In this document: positions 4,249 to 39,746 of the stretch, piece after piece
Layout: every line of letters starts with the position of its first letter
How positions within the stretch are numbered: the stretch's first letter is position 1
Source: an uncultured Erysipelotrichaceae bacterium
GTDB taxonomy: Bacteria > Bacillota_I > Bacilli_A > RF39 > UBA660
DNA: 51,967 nucleotides
NCBI GenBank assembly: GCA_902788975.1
Contig: CADAMI010000002.1
Span: forward strand, 1-51,967
Direction of reading: 5' to 3'
The notes under the pieces: generated by a model
Seen by the model: the letters and a program-made list of their open reading frames with translations, nothing else
Told to the model about the DNA's origin: nothing
Databases searched by the model: none
Position numbers and translations under genes: made by a program

Positions 4249-4278
4249 AATTTAAGATATTTCTTAAGTTCTTTTTTT
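4247..4278 (+). terminator. Rho-independent terminator
   Basis: AGAATTTAAGA-TATT-TCTTAAGTTCT followed by T run. Confidence 0.8.
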
Positions 4279-4345
4279 GTTAACTATAAGTTAATACATT
4301 TGTTTGAATTTATTATTGACAATATATGTTACTTATTGATATAAT
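4279..4345 (+). promoter_or_regulatory. Repeated element copy 2 fused to sigma-A promoter
   Basis: GTTAACTATAAGTTAATACATTTGTTTGAATTTATTA-TTGACA(4316-4321), 18 nt, TGA-TATAAT(4340-4345); 4280-4321 identical to 33868-33909. Confidence 0.85.
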
Positions 4346-31398: not shown

Positions 31399-33828
31399 GT
31401 GATTAGAATAGAAAAACTTAATAAATATTATAATCGTCATAAGAAAAATCAAATTCATGTCATTAATGATACTTCTTTAGAACTTCCTGATAAAGGATTA
31501 GTCGCTTTACTTGGACCAAGTGGATGCGGTAAAACGACATTACTTAATGCAATAGGTGGTTTGGATAAAGCTAATAATGGTAAGATATTTATTGATGATA
31601 AAAAGATTACGACGTTTAACACTTATAAAAAAGATAAATTACGTAATTTAAAGATAGGATATATCTTTCAAGATTATAAGTTAATTGATAACAAGAGTGT
31701 TTATGATAATGTGGCAATGGTTCTAAGAATGATTGGTATCAAAGATAAAAATGAAGTTAAGAAGAGAGTCGAATATATCTTAGAAAGAGTTGGAATATAT
31801 AGATACCGTTATAGACCTTGTGGGATGCTATCGGGGGGAGAAAGACAGAGAGTTGGTATAGCTAGAGCATTAGTTAAAAATCCTGATATAATTTTGGCAG
31901 ATGAACCAACAGGTAATTTGGATAGTAAAAATACAATTGAAATAATGAATATTATTAAATCAATATCTAAAGATAAACTAGTAATATTAGTAACCCATGA
32001 AGTAGAACTAGCTAAATTTTATGCAACAAGAATCATTGAAGTAGTAGATGGAACTGTTGAAAAAGATTATCAAAATAAAAATAAAGATAATTTAGATTAT
32101 CGAATCGATAATAAGTTTTATCTAAAAGATTTTAAATATCATGAAGAAAATAAAGATAATAATATTAATATAGATATGTATAGTGATACTAAAGAGAAAC
32201 TTAATTTAGTAATAATATTTAAAAATGGTAATTTGTATATTAAGAATAAAGATAATGATAAAGTAGAAGTAATCGATAGTAGTTCTAATATAGAGTTAAT
32301 TAATGATAATTATAAACAATTAGATAAAAGTGTTTATGAAAAATATTCTTTTGATTTTGATAAGATTATCAATAATAATATTAAATTAAAATATTCATCA
32401 ATATTTAATATATTTACAATATTTAGTAATGGTTTTAAAAAAGTATTTGATTATTCTTTTGTAAAAAAATTACTATTAATCGGATTCTTCTTATCATCAT
32501 TATTTGTTACTTATTCAGTAAGTAATTTACTTGGAGTGGCGACAGTTAATGATAAAGATTTTATTAAAACAAATAAGAATTATTTGATGTTAGAAAGCAA
32601 GAAAGTATCAGTGAGTGACTATAATAAATATTCAGAAATGGATGGTATTAATTATATTCTTCCGGGGGATAGTAATGCAAACTTTAATATTGATACGAAG
32701 GGCTACTATCAGACTGAAAACGTAGGACTAATTATTGGTGGATCAATTGCAAGTACTAGTATGATTAGTAAAGATAATTTGGTATATGGAAGAATGCCTG
32801 AAAATGAATATGAAATCGTTATCGATAAAATGACTTATAAGAGAGCAGAGAATATTAAGATGGTCGGTTTATATGATATAGAAAGAATGCTTGATACAAA
32901 AGTTTATTTAGGTAATCATCTTCTTGAATATACAATTGTTGGTATAACTGATTTGGAAAGTCCATCAATATATGTAGATAATAATCAATTTATAAATATT
33001 ATTGATAATAGTTCTAGTGATGGTATGTTTTCATATAGAGAAGAAAGAGCTAATGGCGGTAGTGTATATGATTACACACTATATAAAGATAAGATAAGTA
33101 TTGTTAAAGGACGTACACCAGATAATGATTATGAAGTAATTGTTAATGAAAACTTAAAAGATACTTTTAAATTAGATAAATATATCGATGATTTAAAAGT
33201 TAATGGTGAAAAATTAAAAGTTGTTGGTTATTATACTTCTAGTGATGAAATTAATAGTTATTTTGTAAATACAAATACTAATAAATATGAATTAATTGGT
33301 AATAGTCAAAATTTGGTTATATATGCCAGTGATAAGGATAAAACAATTAGAGATTTTAAAGAACTAGATAGAAAGGTAATCGACGTGTATGATGCTGATA
33401 AAAAGGCTTATTTAAAGGAAAATAAGGAAAGTATGAATGCTAGTTTAATTGTAGCAGCTATTATGTTAGGTATATCTTTAGTTGAAATAATTTTGATGAC
33501 GCGTTCATCATTCTTATCAAGAATTAAAGAAGTAGGTATATATAGAGCTATTGGCGTTAAGAAAAGTGATATATATAAGATGTTTATGGGTGAAGCATTC
33601 GCGATTACAACATTAACAAGTATTCCAGGAGTATTATTTATGGGATACTGTATCAATGTTATTTCGGATATTAAGTATATAAGTAGAAATTATATTATGA
33701 ACTGGGGAGTAATTCTTTTATGTATAGTTATTATATATGTATTTAATATTGTTGTTTCCTTAATACCAGTATTTAACACGATGAGAAAAACACCTGCTCA
33801 AATTCTTGCTAGACATGATTTAGACTAA
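31399..33828 (+). CDS. Fused ABC transporter ATPase/permease (MacB/FtsX-like)
   Basis: GPSGCGKTT, LSGGERQR, ADEPTGNLD, RIKEVGIYRAIG FtsX motif. Confidence 0.92.
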   Translation: MIRIEKLNKYYNRHKKNQIHVINDTSLELPDKGLVALLGPSGCGKTTLLNAIGGLDKANNGKIFIDDKKITTFNTYKKDKLRNLKIGYIFQDYKLIDNKSVYDNVAMVLRMIGIKDKNEVKKRVEYILERVGIYRYRYRPCGMLSGGERQRVGIARALVKNPDIILADEPTGNLDSKNTIEIMNIIKSISKDKLVILVTHEVELAKFYATRIIEVVDGTVEKDYQNKNKDNLDYRIDNKFYLKDFKYHEENKDNNINIDMYSDTKEKLNLVIIFKNGNLYIKNKDNDKVEVIDSSSNIELINDNYKQLDKSVYEKYSFDFDKIINNNIKLKYSSIFNIFTIFSNGFKKVFDYSFVKKLLLIGFFLSSLFVTYSVSNLLGVATVNDKDFIKTNKNYLMLESKKVSVSDYNKYSEMDGINYILPGDSNANFNIDTKGYYQTENVGLIIGGSIASTSMISKDNLVYGRMPENEYEIVIDKMTYKRAENIKMVGLYDIERMLDTKVYLGNHLLEYTIVGITDLESPSIYVDNNQFINIIDNSSSDGMFSYREERANGGSVYDYTLYKDKISIVKGRTPDNDYEVIVNENLKDTFKLDKYIDDLKVNGEKLKVVGYYTSSDEINSYFVNTNTNKYELIGNSQNLVIYASDKDKTIRDFKELDRKVIDVYDADKKAYLKENKESMNASLIVAAIMLGISLVEIILMTRSSFLSRIKEVGIYRAIGVKKSDIYKMFMGEAFAITTLTSIPGVLFMGYCINVISDIKYISRNYIMNWGVILLCIVIIYVFNIVVSLIPVFNTMRKTPAQILARHDLD

Positions 33829-33831
33829 AAT

Positions 33832-33869
33832 AAAATACTAGATTTATAAAAAAGATCTAGTATTTTTTT
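33832..33869 (+). terminator. Terminator after ABC operon
   Basis: AAAATACTAGATTT...AGATCTAGTATTTT plus T run. Confidence 0.8.
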
Positions 33870-33933
33870 AACTATAAGTTAATACATTTGTTTGAATTTA
33901 TTATTGACATTAATAATGATGTTTTGTTATAAT
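33868..33933 (+). promoter_or_regulatory. Repeated element copy 3 fused to promoter of toxin-like locus A
   Basis: 42-nt identity with 4280-4321; TTGACA(33904-33909), 18 nt, TGT-TATAAT(33928-33933). Confidence 0.85.
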
Positions 33934-33996
33934 ATTATTTAGGAATATTTGATAGTTGGGTGATGCCTCCAATCTTAATAGATTGGAGGTGATGCG

Positions 33997-34089
33997 ATGA
34001 GTACCAAAGAATTAAAAAACTTGCTTAATATTTTACTTATCATCGTAATATTACTTATTGCATTACTATTCGTAGTGCTCATGAAATAA
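33997..34089 (+). CDS. Putative type I toxin peptide A (30 aa, single TM)
   Basis: MSTKELKNLLNILLIIVILLIALLFVVLMK; RBS GGAGGTG hidden in hairpin CCTCCAATC/GATTGGAGG; 5'-3' long-range pairing of the transcript. Confidence 0.8.
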   Translation: MSTKELKNLLNILLIIVILLIALLFVVLMK

Positions 34090-34203
34090 AAGATTGCCTA
34101 AATAAGCTTAGTTAGGCAATACCCAAAAAAATATTTTGAGGCATTACTCAACAGCGAAAAGTCAAGTATTCCTCTTTTTTAATATATGAAGTTTCCTTCA
34201 TCT
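34086..34203 (-). ncRNA. Putative antisense antitoxin RNA A
   Basis: Minus-strand promoter TTGTTT(34238-34233)-17-TATAAT(34215-34210); terminator hairpin 34093-34120 followed by U run on minus strand. Confidence 0.65.
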
Positions 34204-34316
34204 ATATACATTATATAATATAATAGATAAAAAAACAAGATTAAAAGTAAGATAAATTATTTAAATGCTCGTAATTTGTTTAAAATAATGGTATAATTAC
34301 TAACGAGGAAGATATT

Positions 34317-36116
34317 ATGGATATAAATAAGATAAGAAATTTCTGTATTATTGCACATATTGATCATGGTAAGAGTACTTTAGCTGATCGTATACTTGAA
34401 TATACGGGTGCGATTGATAAAAGAGAAATGAAAGATCAAATATTAGATAATATGGATTTAGAAAGAGAAAGAGGAATTACAATTAAATTAAATGCAGTTA
34501 GGTTAAATTATAAAGATTATATTCTTAATTTAATTGATACGCCAGGACATGTCGATTTTACTTACGAAGTAAGTAGAAGTATGGCGGCATGTGAAGGGGC
34601 TATTTTAATCGTAGATGCTGCTCAAGGAATTGAAGCTCAAACTCTATCAAATATATATTTAGCAATGGAAAATGATTTAGAGATAATACCAGTTATTAAT
34701 AAAATAGATTTACCTAGTGCTGATATTGAAAAAAGAATAGACGAACTTAATAAGATGTTCGGTTTTAAGAGAGAAGAAATTTTACTTACATCAGCAAAGA
34801 CTGGTGAGGGTATTCCAGAACTGGTTGATGCGATTGTCGAAAGAATTCCTAGTCCGAAAATAGAATATAACGATGAGAAATTAAGATGTTTAATATTTGA
34901 TAGTTATTTTGATTCTTATTTAGGGGTCGTTTCATTAATTAGAGTTGTTAGTGGTAAAGTATCAATGGGTGATAATATTAAGATGTTTACGACGGGTGCT
35001 AATTATGAAGTAACAGAGATAGGTTATCATACTCCAAAAAAAGAAAAAGTTAGTACTTTAAGTGCGGGTGAAGTAGGATTCTTGTCAGCAAGTATAAAAT
35101 CGATTGATAGTGTACGTGTAGGCGATACGATAACATTAAATAATAATCCTTGTTTGGTGGGATTACCTGGTTATAAACAATTGAAACCAATGGTATTTTG
35201 TGGAATATATCCAATTGACAGTAAGAAATATCCTAATTTAAGAGAAGCTTTAGAAAAATTAAAACTAAATGATGCGTCATTATCATTTGAACCCGAGACT
35301 TCACAGACTTTAGGTTTTGGCTTTAGAACTGGTTTTTTAGGATTGCTTCATTTAGATATTATTACGGAACGTATTGAAAGAGAATTTGGGGTAGATATTA
35401 TTGCCACAGCTCCATCGGTTATTTATGAAATAACCTTAACTGATGGAAGTGTAATCTATGTTGATAATCCATCAGAATTTCCACCTAAGGTAAGAATTAG
35501 TATGATAAAAGAACCATACATTAGAACTAATATCTATGTACCAAATGAATATATTGGTTCTATAATGGAACTTTGTCAAGATAAAAGAGGAACTTATATA
35601 AATACTGACTATATTGATACGACTAGAGTAAATATTCATTATGAGATACCTTTATCAGAAATCGTATATGATTTTTTTGATAAACTTAAGAGTTATACGA
35701 AGGGATATGCCTCTTTTGACTATGAGATAATTGGTTATAAGATAAGTGATCTTGTTAAGATGGATGTTATGTTAAATGGGGAAATTGTCGATGCATTATC
35801 AGTTATAGTTCATAAAGATTTTGCTTATAAGAGAGGAAGAGTAATTGTCGATAATTTAAAAGAAATTATTCCTAGACAATTATTTGAAGTACCAGTCCAA
35901 GCGGTAATTGGTAGTAAAGTAATTGCTCGTAGTGATATAAAAGCGATGAGAAAAGATGTCTTAGCTAAATGTTATGGTGGCGATATTACTAGAAAAAGAA
36001 AACTTTTGGAAAAACAAAAAGAAGGTAAGAAAAAAATGAAGACTATCGGTAAAGTAGATATACCTAAAGAAGCCTTCTTATCAGTATTAAAAGCAACAGA
36101 AATTAAGAAAGATTAA
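34317..36116 (+). CDS. lepA: Elongation factor 4
   Basis: [50 protein letters not shown]. Confidence 0.98.
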
Positions 36117-36150
36117 AAGAGAATTGAGTATGTTATCAATTCTCTTATTT
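36117..36150 (+). terminator. Terminator after lepA
   Basis: AAGAGAATTGA...TCAATTCTCTT. Confidence 0.75.
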
Positions 36151-36204
36151 TAATACATTTGTTTGATTTTATTATTGACTTTTCATTAATGCGTTTGATA
36201 TAAT
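36150..36204 (+). promoter_or_regulatory. Repeated element copy 4 (left palindrome arm missing) fused to promoter of toxin-like locus B
   Basis: TTAATACATTTGTTTGATTTTATTA-TTGACT(36175-36180), 18 nt, TGA-TATAAT(36199-36204). Confidence 0.8.
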
Positions 36205-36274
36205 TATATTGGAACATTTAGTGTGAGTGTCTGCCTTGAGTCGTTCTTACGAATAGATTGGAGGCTTGGTCAAT

Positions 36275-36367
36275 ATGAAAAAACGTGAATACAATATCAG
36301 GTTTTTAAGGTATATTTCGATCATTTTATTTCTGATTATCATTTTGATAATTGTTATAAAAAAATGA
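36275..36367 (+). CDS. Putative type I toxin peptide B (30 aa, single TM)
   Basis: MKKREYNIRFLRYISIILFLIIILIIVIKK; RBS GGAGG in hairpin; same RNA architecture as locus A. Confidence 0.8.
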   Translation: MKKREYNIRFLRYISIILFLIIILIIVIKK

Positions 36368-36484
36368 CATCCACTTTACTATGGATGTCCCCGTTTTATG
36401 CCATATGGCATTTAATTAGGTAGGCATTCACAAGGAAAACTGAATGTTCCACCTTTTTTAATATATGCAAGAACTCTTGCTTAC
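36358..36484 (-). ncRNA. Putative antisense antitoxin RNA B
   Basis: Minus-strand promoter TTGACA(36519-36514)-17-TATATT(36496-36491) with extended TG; terminator GACATCCA/TGGATGTC (36366-36389) plus U run on minus strand. Confidence 0.7.
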
Positions 36485-36578
36485 ATACTTAATATAGCAT
36501 ATTTATATTTTATTGTCAAAAGATTATTTACATATTTATAGATGATGATATAATAATTAATAATTATTGGGGGTAGTT

Positions 36579-37802
36579 ATGCATAATGTTGATGAAATGA
36601 AATTATATGAATTATATTATATCGTATATGTTTATAGTATATATGAAGATGATGATATTGTTCCTTATGATATGGAATATGTATGGCATAAAATTAATGA
36701 TTATTATTACCAAGAAAATGATATATTATTAGATATCAATAAAGAAGATGATAGAAGTATTTTATTTAATTGGATGAAAGAGAAATGTAGATATCAATTA
36801 CTAGATGAATTAATGGTTCATATGTTTAATAGATTTATTAATATAGAAGATAATGGCATAGATAATCGAGATGAATTCTTTATTAATAATATAGATATGA
36901 TGGAAAAAATTATGGGTACTGGTAATTATGATATGAAAATGGATGATAAAAATATATCGGAATTAAGTAAAGATAAAGTAATTACTTTAGTAAAAGAGAT
37001 ACTTTTAGAAATTGATCCATCTAGTGAATGGTTAAGAATATATGAAGAAGCCATTGATAAGAATAAAATTATTTATTTAAATGAATTAGATAAAAAAGGG
37101 ATAATTGATTTAAAGAAAGAATTAGTCGTTGATTCATTAAAATATATTGATAACTCTTGTTTGACTCTTGAGAATGGTGAGAAATATATATTCTTAAATT
37201 ATAAAGGGGATATTAGTGATGTATCTACGACAATTCATGAATTTACTCATTATGTTAGTAAATATAATCATAATGAAAAAGAGTCACCAATATTACGAGA
37301 ATTTCCAGCCATATTTTTTGAATTATATGCATTAGATTATTTAAAAGAAATAGGTTATGATGAAAATGATATAAAATTAGTTAATCAACATAGAGTAGCT
37401 GATACTTATATGGCAACGATGGAATCAAGAATATTTATTTATTATTTAAAAACGATAATGAATAATGGGGTAATTAATGAAGAAATAGACAGAGAATTAA
37501 TTAGAGATAAATATTATTTGTTTAATGATGTAAGAAAAAATTGTGATAATTGTATTAGAGATTTAATAATTAATCCGTATGCATTTTTTGAAATATATCC
37601 ATATGTTATTGGTAATTATTTAGCAGATAATGCTATAATAAAACTAAAAAATGATAGACAATTATTAGGGTTTATAAAATATATGAATGATAATTTATAT
37701 AGGATAAATCCATATGATGTATTTAATATCCTTGGTTGTGGAGATGTTGATTTAGTAAATACCAATGAAGAAAAACAAAAAGTAAAAAAAAGAAATAAAT
37801 AG
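36579..37802 (+). CDS. Hypothetical HExxH protein (M3 peptidase-like motif)
   Basis: TTIHEFTH...LREFPAIFFE...YPYVIG; basic C-terminal tail. Confidence 0.6.
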   Translation: MHNVDEMKLYELYYIVYVYSIYEDDDIVPYDMEYVWHKINDYYYQENDILLDINKEDDRSILFNWMKEKCRYQLLDELMVHMFNRFINIEDNGIDNRDEFFINNIDMMEKIMGTGNYDMKMDDKNISELSKDKVITLVKEILLEIDPSSEWLRIYEEAIDKNKIIYLNELDKKGIIDLKKELVVDSLKYIDNSCLTLENGEKYIFLNYKGDISDVSTTIHEFTHYVSKYNHNEKESPILREFPAIFFELYALDYLKEIGYDENDIKLVNQHRVADTYMATMESRIFIYYLKTIMNNGVINEEIDRELIRDKYYLFNDVRKNCDNCIRDLIINPYAFFEIYPYVIGNYLADNAIIKLKNDRQLLGFIKYMNDNLYRINPYDVFNILGCGDVDLVNTNEEKQKVKKRNK

Positions 37803-39661: not shown

Positions 39662-39679
39662 TGATTTAAATCTTTTTTT

Positions 39680-39746
39680 GTTAACTATATGTTAATACAT
39701 TTGTTTGTGATTATTATTGACATATGTAGTATTTATTTGTTATAAT
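39680..39746 (+). promoter_or_regulatory. Repeated element copy 5 fused to promoter of LPD3-like gene
   Basis: GTTAACTATATGTTAATACATTTGTTTGTGATTATTA-TTGACA(39717-39722), 18 nt, TGT-TATAAT(39741-39746); abuts terminator 39651-39679. Confidence 0.85.

Follow-up and report, generated by a model that had tools for sequence, protein, structure and literature searches.

A candidate type I toxin-antitoxin family with an end-to-end closed mRNA in uncultured RF39 bacteria

Introduction

On either side of the lepA gene of an uncultured RF39 bacterium (assembly GCA_902788975.1) lies a short locus of the same layout and different sequence, which raises the question of what such a locus encodes. The locus considered here, locus B, is found at positions 36150-36519 of the window, that is, of the whole stretch of 51,967 nucleotides of contig CADAMI010000002.1 that was analysed. 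On reading of the sequence it holds a sigma-70 promoter, a predicted mRNA of ~249 nt and a convergent promoter on the minus strand. A first-pass annotation had described locus B as a twin of locus A across lepA, had argued for selection on RNA structure, and had put the two forward as a candidate new type I toxin-antitoxin family. This last proposal is supported by the analysis below, in which no match was found in Rfam, Pfam or NCBIfam and a conserved candidate antisense gene was recognised. Locus B is probably a functional member of a chromosomal type I family not described before, one in which an organisation of the Gram-positive type is combined with a closing helix resembling that of hok and AapA.

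Organisation of locus B and its predicted mRNA

The plus-strand features of locus B, in window coordinates, are as follows.

36175-36204, plus strand: toxin promoter, TTGACT, 18-nt spacer and TG-extended TATAAT (11 of 12 in the promoter scan)
36211-36459, plus strand: predicted toxin mRNA of ~249 nt, with a U-run at its end (36454-36459)
36211-36222, plus strand: 5' arm of helix 1, partner 36439-36450, 12 bp (11 Watson-Crick and one G-U)
36223-36236, plus strand: 5' arm of helix 2, partner 36418-36431, 14 bp (11 Watson-Crick and three G-U)
36233-36265, plus strand: hairpin sequestering the Shine-Dalgarno (SD) sequence, GGAGG at 36260-36264, seen in the minimum free energy (MFE) structure
36275-36367, plus strand: predicted toxin open reading frame (ORF) of 30 codons, from the translation
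36418-36450, plus strand: 3' arms of helix 2 (36418-36431) and helix 1 (36439-36450), with a purine bulge between them

Transcription from the toxin promoter, the position of which is kept among homologs, is predicted to start near 36210-36211, and the covariance model R1 described below matches the locus at 36209-36458 with 152.4 bits. The predicted mRNA (36211-36459) folds at -81.3 kcal/mol in RNAfold with z = -7.81, and none of 200 shuffles was as stable. Two long-range helices joining its ends had been claimed from the letters, and both could be read as 12 and 14 bp, which together make an interrupted closing 5'-3' helix of 26 bp. The GAAAA bulge claimed between them was also found, as part of a 7-nt purine bulge (36432-36438) on the 3' side of the closing helix.

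In the MFE structure nucleotides 1-22 of the RNA are likewise paired to the 3' end, and the fold departs from the claimed helix 2 solely at its inner end, where nucleotides 23-27 (GCCUU, 36233-36237) pair with the SD. The last 4 nt of the helix 2 5' arm are thus also an anti-SD, the same bases serving as the end of a helix and as the partner of GGAGG. Over 55 homologs the mean probability of the SD being unpaired is 0.19. The two 3' arms can in addition pair with each other, in a local hairpin that abuts the U-run, and this holds for all copies of the genome except that on contig C24; folded as 60-nt 3' segments, the copies of the genome (C24 excepted) give -5.7 to -14.9 kcal/mol. In the model proposed here this local hairpin could act as a terminator and as a transient state accessible to the antisense RNA, preceding the long-range helix.

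The corresponding features of locus A are the following.

33879-34215, plus strand: locus A, the paralogous module across lepA, with cassette 33879-33908, promoter 33904-33933 and mRNA 33942-34180
33997-34089, plus strand: ORF of locus A
~34206 to 34085, minus strand: antisense RNA of locus A

Locus A follows the same plan as locus B in different letters, and it folds similarly in RNAfold (z = -8.06). The sequences that the two loci had been said to share were confirmed: AATAGATTGGAGG has just two occurrences in the window, those at A and B, where 0.14 would be expected, and TTTTTTAATATATG followed by a small hairpin is common to both. The description of locus B as a twin was borne out insofar as the loci are paralogous, but they are not just a pair, as A and B are two of 11 copies that fall into several groups.

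A small ORF with a coding signature

The predicted peptide of locus B has 30 residues, with a K/R-rich N-terminus, a single hydrophobic helix and a C-terminal KK. An ORF of 30 codons in both loci had been noted earlier, and the translations of A and B agree with this. Of the 61 unique full-length copies, 57 retain a start codon that is preceded by an SD and opens a frame of 25-37 codons; 50 of these ORFs start with ATG, four with GTG and three with TTG, and 26 are exactly 30 codons long. The B-type peptide is conserved across many genera, and at least three peptide types occur in the family, with A and B being of different types.

Among 23 distinct B-type ORFs, codon position 3 accounted for 2803 differences, position 1 for 1864 and position 2 for 1419. 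Of the differing codon pairs 31% were synonymous, a share that falls to 11% and 8% when the frame is shifted. Judged by these patterns of substitution, the ORF is evolving as a coding sequence under purifying selection.

Searches with the peptide returned nothing near any cut-off in Pfam and NCBIfam, merely sub-threshold transmembrane-like noise, and the Fst toxin profile was among those that it did not match. The exact peptides of locus A, locus B and the copy on contig C28 (n = 3) were not among the 15 billion proteins of a large collection, and the ESM Atlas gave no usable match. Peptides of this family escape gene callers, and the family was discovered through RNA structure alone.

Covariation of the RNA structure

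The selection on structure that had been claimed for A and B was looked for in alignments of homologs. In an unfitted MAFFT alignment of 30 copies, RNAalifold alone recovered helix 1 and the post-stop hairpin, a total of 18 pairs. In this alignment 92.6% of cells were paired, compared with 83.2% in shuffled alignments (reached in 0 of 500) and 37-42% when the partner was slid. There were 69 double-change cells vs 22.4 in the shuffles (0 of 500), and the covariation score was 0.410 vs 0.222 (0 of 500). By a weaker measure, the number of pairs with a double change, the values were 11 and 7.9 (6 of 500), and further pair types (22 vs 23.4) were not above the shuffles (467 of 500).

Because MAFFT had set helix 2 out of register between subfamilies, a covariance model was built, for which a structure of 43 pairs was set by hand on 32 B-type copies, and with it 71 matches (70 distinct sequences) were aligned. 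In the fitted alignment 88.2% of cells were paired vs 74.1% in shuffles (0 of 500) and 37-45% when slid, with double changes in 42 of 43 pairs and 394 double-change cells vs 110.8. A fitted alignment leans towards its own structure, thus the unfitted result is the cleaner of the two. For alignment A4, three of 34 B-type copies were left out (the C24 copy and two without a 5' arm) and the copy L053 was re-added.

Of the individual helices, helix 3 of the fitted structure, which covers helix 2 above, is paired in 93.3% of cells with double changes in 11 of 12 pairs. Helix 6, which is the post-stop hairpin, has double changes in 10 of 10 pairs with G-U pairs almost absent. A tally of the pair table gives a G-U share of ~11% of cells in the long-range helices vs ~1% in the post-stop hairpin, which fits long-range helices that are used on the plus strand only and a post-stop hairpin that is used on both strands. 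The ~70 natural sequence variants are a ready-made data set for covariation.

Closure of the RNA is also seen without any alignment, the MFE structure joining the 5' end to the 3' end in 53 of 59 unique full-length copies. Duplexes between the 5' and 3' arms have energies of -32.3 +/- 6.1 kcal/mol for cognate arms, -23.0 +/- 7.5 for non-cognate arms and -12.9 +/- 3.6 for shuffled ones; these fold and duplex counts leave out the C24 copy, which has a 3' deletion, and the mis-trimmed copy L053. The first-pass annotation had tied its proposal to covariation among homologs and to conservation of the ORF. Covariation was found, in the unfitted and the fitted alignment alike, and the homologs keep the ORF, which shows a coding signature.

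A fold that is exceptionally stable and covarying could mean that the structured plus-strand RNA is itself the main product, a non-coding regulator to which the small ORF is secondary. This is considered very improbable, for what the helices surround is a conserved ORF with a consensus SD and they have no other recognisable role, the ORF shows protein-level selection, and the RNA matches no Rfam family: a search of Rfam 15 with positions 33700-36700 on both strands (E <= 10) found none save a chance match inside lepA.

The predicted antisense RNA

Three further features lie wholly or partly on the minus strand.

36491-36519, minus strand: antisense promoter, TTGACA, 17-nt spacer and TATATT (11 of 12 in the scan)
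36357-36485, minus strand: predicted antisense (antitoxin) RNA of ~130 nt, with a 5' hairpin at 36467-36480
36366-36389, both strands: post-stop hairpin, on the minus strand an intrinsic terminator with the tail ATTTTTTTAT (terminator scan)

In a promoter scan the antisense promoter of locus B ranks second among the 31 promoter-like sites listed for 33800-36620. The RNA predicted from it folds with z = -5.38. Its complement in the mRNA runs from the last codons through the entire 3' UTR and takes in the two 3' arms of the closing helix. A hairpin following the stop codon had been claimed, and it is present at 36366-36389 and covaries; the U-run of the antisense terminator that it forms is the complement of the A-run in the Lys-Lys-stop codons. 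Downstream of locus B there is a 411-codon ORF without a Pfam match (window 36527-37802), and the promoter-like site of this ORF (TTTACA, 16 nt, TATAAT; 36527-36554) stands back to back with the antisense promoter.

The antisense layout of promoter, 5' hairpin and terminator is kept in homologs. Of 61 copies, 55 have the pattern TTGnnn-17-TAnnnT on the minus strand in a constant position immediately past the mRNA U-run, and some of the six misses have -35 boxes of the TTTACA type, which lie outside the search pattern. The plus strand of that stretch has the pattern in two of 61, with 4.4 expected from shuffles. The 5' hairpin has at least 4 bp in 52 of 55 copies, its loop is GAAA in 33, and its stem occurs in compensating versions among homologs.

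From the predicted folds it appears that most of the antisense target is double-helical in the closed mRNA, the purine bulge being the sole single-stranded stretch within it, and that the loop of an internal hairpin of the antisense RNA carries the complement of this bulge. The bulge is thus the likely first contact for the antisense RNA.

Predicted duplexes between antisense RNA and mRNA lie between -160 and -184 kcal/mol for cognate pairs. For the antitoxin of A with the toxin mRNA of B, A against B, the value is -34/-35 kcal/mol, compared with -176/-184 for the cognate pairs. Non-cross-reacting pairs, as the first-pass annotation had supposed, are made plausible by this weak duplex as compared with the cognate ones. 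Locus A groups with three other copies, with which the predicted duplexes reach -98 to -125 kcal/mol, and locus B has no close partner, its best non-cognate duplex being predicted at -56 kcal/mol.

The promoter cassette and possible LexA control

Upstream, the toxin promoter of locus B is joined by one further element.

36150-36179, plus strand: proximal 30 nt of a promoter cassette, running into the -35, with a LexA-box-like 12-mer at 36153-36164

A repeated element of 42 bp had been placed over both loci; in locus B its proximal 30 nt are present, but the rest is absent and the element is not specific to these loci. The 30-nt core is found four times in the window and, with at most two mismatches allowed, eight times in the genome, and three of the eight genomic copies precede ordinary genes, namely a DUF4186-ORF6N pair, a gene with an LPD3 domain and an unannotated gene on contig C11. 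The element is thus better described as a promoter cassette, neither specific to the module nor part of it.

Related promoter cassettes are seen at window 4270-4320 and 39671-39721 and on other contigs at C11:962-991, C2:~520-600 and C58:~2750-2830, with the order inverted repeat GTTAAC-N5-GTTAA, LexA-box-like core, 10 nt, TTGACA. They also precede a Bro-N gene (C2:640-1473) and an unannotated gene on C58. By reading, the N-terminus of the C11 gene product resembles those encoded by the cassette genes of C2 and C58, of which only that of C2 is annotated (Bro-N). The genes behind the cassettes may form a small SOS-type regulon of genes of the mobile-element type.

The box of locus B, AtAC-N4-GTTT, has one mismatch in its left half-site, and the same is true of the box in the locus A cassette. 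lexA is encoded in the genome, and in 20 of 20 lexA loci examined in relatives [AG]AAC-N4-GTT[TC] overlaps the -35. The strict LexA pattern gives 12 sites in the genome, five of them intergenic, and of these five two belong to lexA and a third is found immediately before recA; the cassette box stands 10 nt from TTGACA, the same distance as the recA box. Among the homologs, an intact AAC-N4-GTT is present within 95 nt upstream in 13 of 54, mostly between -35 and -10, where a base-composition estimate would expect ~1.6 of 54 by chance. The copy on contig C38 is an example with an intact box in the promoter spacer. No LexA box was read in the region upstream of uvrB.

The upstream region of lexA itself (contig C15:21325-21620, L188) carries two LexA-type boxes, one of which overlaps the -35, and the distal box is ~20 nt away from a consensus promoter that points in the divergent direction, an arrangement that is conserved in the genus. 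In the B-type promoters of many genera (e.g. L103, L092, L084, L095) the motif GTTCG(C/A)TTGTTT overlaps the toxin -35, and a matching left half-site to this motif was not seen.

A LexA box near consensus in the cassette makes SOS induction possible. Going by the motifs, SOS control is likely for part of the family, and LexA may repress the toxin promoter of locus B. The suggestion of a stress induction like that of tisB gains a concrete footing in the LexA-box-like core, but for A and B themselves, with one half-site mismatch each, such induction is no more than possible. To our knowledge no LexA-regulated type I toxin family was described earlier in Firmicute-like bacteria, and a literature search, judged by titles and the openings of abstracts, found no LexA-controlled type I system in Gram-positives. 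A link to the DNA-damage response, if true, would tie the family to persistence-type physiology in gut commensals.

Copies, spread and genomic setting

A copy-profile search found the 11 copies in an assembly of 1.23 Mb (72 contigs, 70.6% complete, 26.6% G+C). With locus A as a BLAST query, 11 of 24 other genomes of the same family had relatives, as against none of 16 genomes of other families. With locus B, 53 of 200 further genera of the family, each represented by one genome, gave matches. In a class-wide sample searched with the covariance model under strict filters, three of seven genomes of the family were matched, and outside the family one of 93 gave a marginal partial match (E = 7e-4). 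The nearest named relatives of the host LepA are in gut metagenome-assembled genomes called "uncultured Bacilli" and in CAG-type bins labelled as Clostridium or Mycoplasma sp., which we take to be RF39-like Bacilli with small genomes. The family occupies an unusual share of the intergenic space of this lineage, a large group of uncultured gut bacteria whose genomes are reduced.

Modules stand in tandem arrays in some relatives. L057 (G011:C3:184095-185045) has three identical or near-identical tandem modules with a period of 358 nt, and L087 (G091:C11) has four modules of three peptide types in ~1.7 kb. The B-type copy at C24:8061-8297 (L043), when set against L053, has lost ~35 nt by deletion, and with them the helix 1 3' arm, the U-run and the 5' hairpin of the antisense RNA; the ORF and the antisense promoter are retained, and this copy may be decaying or deregulated. 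Five remnants (L054, L061, L101, L050:845-1191 and C62:186-348) keep the antisense gene and its target, that is the 3' half, and are without the promoter, the 5' arm and most of the ORF, the pattern that decay to an orphan antitoxin would give.

The flanks of lepA in relatives (1.5 kb) contained the module in none of 80 loci, so the position beside lepA is specific to this lineage. This bears on whether the peptide might be no toxin at all but a small membrane protein that does no harm and whose level is adjusted by an antisense RNA in cis, the copies then serving dosage or the diversification of a membrane function. Such a protein would go unmatched to toxin families, as the peptide does, and its ORF would be under purifying selection like that of any useful protein. 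It is nevertheless considered unlikely, given features more typical of type I toxins than of ordinary small membrane proteins, namely that the copies, dispersed and in tandem, have private antisense specificities, that the translational locking is very heavy, that the insertion is non-syntenic, as at lepA, and that decayed copies lose the ORF and retain the antisense half.

Many intergenic, non-syntenic copies, with an upstream region that is partly the promoter cassette of other genes too, could also be expected of a selfish or structural repeat, either a promoter-plus-terminator cassette or something MITE-like, in which the ORF and the antisense promoter would be by-products. Very little credence is given to this, as the ORF has a coding signature with a peptide conserved over many genera and the antisense promoter is fixed in its position and its 17-nt spacing. 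Terminal inverted repeats or target duplications were not seen on reading the copies, phage and plasmid collections held no match to the module, and a conserved 27-mer of the antisense 5' region had none in viral contigs.

A proposed mechanism

Taking locus B as a type I module, the following course of events is proposed. The plus strand would give a ~249-nt mRNA for a 30-residue membrane peptide with a single helix, and this mRNA would be inert and stable, with its 5' end zipped to its 3' end and its SD buried in a local hairpin. From the convergent promoter beyond the mRNA U-run a ~130-nt antisense RNA would be made, ending at the post-stop hairpin. Pairing would probably nucleate at the purine bulge, which is conserved and faces its complement in the antisense loop, and would extend to a long duplex, which RNase III would cut and so remove the toxin mRNA, by analogy with txpA/RatA and bsrG/SR4.

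RNase III (rnc) is encoded in the genome and, together with the Gram-positive layout described in reviews, this favours decay after duplex formation. With the 3' arm as part of its complement, the antisense RNA would have the 5' end of the same mRNA as a competitor. A tightening of the SD stem like that in bsrG/SR4 was considered and rejected as a general feature: when the 3' 100 nt were masked in silico, SD accessibility was 0.190 vs 0.187 over 55 homologs.

A more specific proposal can be framed, in which the family is restricted to this lineage, controlled by the SOS response and present in ~10 copies per genome of ~1.2-1.7 Mb, with an antisense RNA that attacks the 3' arm of the closing helix. 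Taken with all of its parts, this proposal is put forward tentatively.

Comparison with known systems

The class of type I systems has been defined by hydrophobic peptides of 20-60 residues and mRNAs of 150-400 nt, in the portions consulted of a review (PMC8594479). Locus B lies within these sizes with its 30-residue peptide and predicted mRNA of ~249 nt, and a gene for a complementary RNA is predicted from the conserved promoter, 5' hairpin and terminator. A full-text literature search found nothing on type I systems in RF39. The genomes of this lineage post-date Fozo et al. 2010. A new family within the known type I class, unmatched in Rfam, Pfam and NCBIfam, is thus credible, within the limit that the supplementary tables of Fozo et al. 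2010 and the lists of T1TAdb could hold similar peptides.

In the portions of two reviews that were consulted, all Gram-positive type I systems are described as convergent RNAs with a 3' overlap of ~120 nt, RatA as acting through RNase III-dependent decay, and SR4 through decay together with tightening of the SD stem (PMC4147584; PMC8594479). The closest likeness in organisation is to txpA/RatA, bsrG/SR4 and bsrE/SR5 of Bacillus subtilis, which as far as these accounts go have convergent genes with an antisense overlap of ~100-120 nt at the 3' end, a small hydrophobic peptide and an SD within a stem, RNase III being the likely effector here as there. With txpA/RatA and BsrE-G-H/as-Bsr the genetic organisation alone is in common, as there is no similarity of sequence or profile. 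The peptides here are shorter than those of txpA/RatA, bsrG/SR4 and bsrE/SR5, at 25-37 residues and mostly 30. Those systems also differ in that the mRNA here has a 26-bp end-to-end closure with an antisense RNA complementary to the 3' arm of that helix, and in that the antisense terminator here is the post-stop hairpin, with its U-run derived from the Lys-Lys-stop codons.

Fst/RNAII (par of pAD1) is likewise from Firmicutes, with convergent RNAs that have a common terminator region and a 5' stem-loop over the SD. It differs in that the interaction takes place outside the overlap, according to the portion consulted of a review (PMC8594479), and in that the locus here has no Rfam match and no Pfam or NCBIfam match above cut-off.

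The tisB/IstR-1 and dinQ/AgrB systems of E. coli have small single-helix peptides too, of 29 and 27 residues, and a LexA operator at the toxin promoter, in the part consulted of another review (PMC8309996). For the family described here LexA control is suggested by motifs. Unlike here, the antitoxin genes of tisB and dinQ lie on the 5' side of the toxin mRNA, with no overlap between the two, as stated in the consulted part of PMC8594479.

With hok/Sok and aapA1/IsoA1 of Proteobacteria the family has in common a long-distance 5'-3' lock of the full-length mRNA and a local structure that hides the SD. AapA1, too, is a peptide of 30 residues, and activation of the hok and aapA1 mRNAs requires 3' trimming. 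In hok/Sok and AapA/IsoA the antisense RNA is encoded within the mRNA and acts at its 5' or translation-initiation region, whereas here it would start past the 3' end of the mRNA and cover the 3' UTR, and the phylum is a different one. It is this design that sets the family apart, with the antisense RNA and the 5' end of the mRNA probably competing for the same 3' arm.
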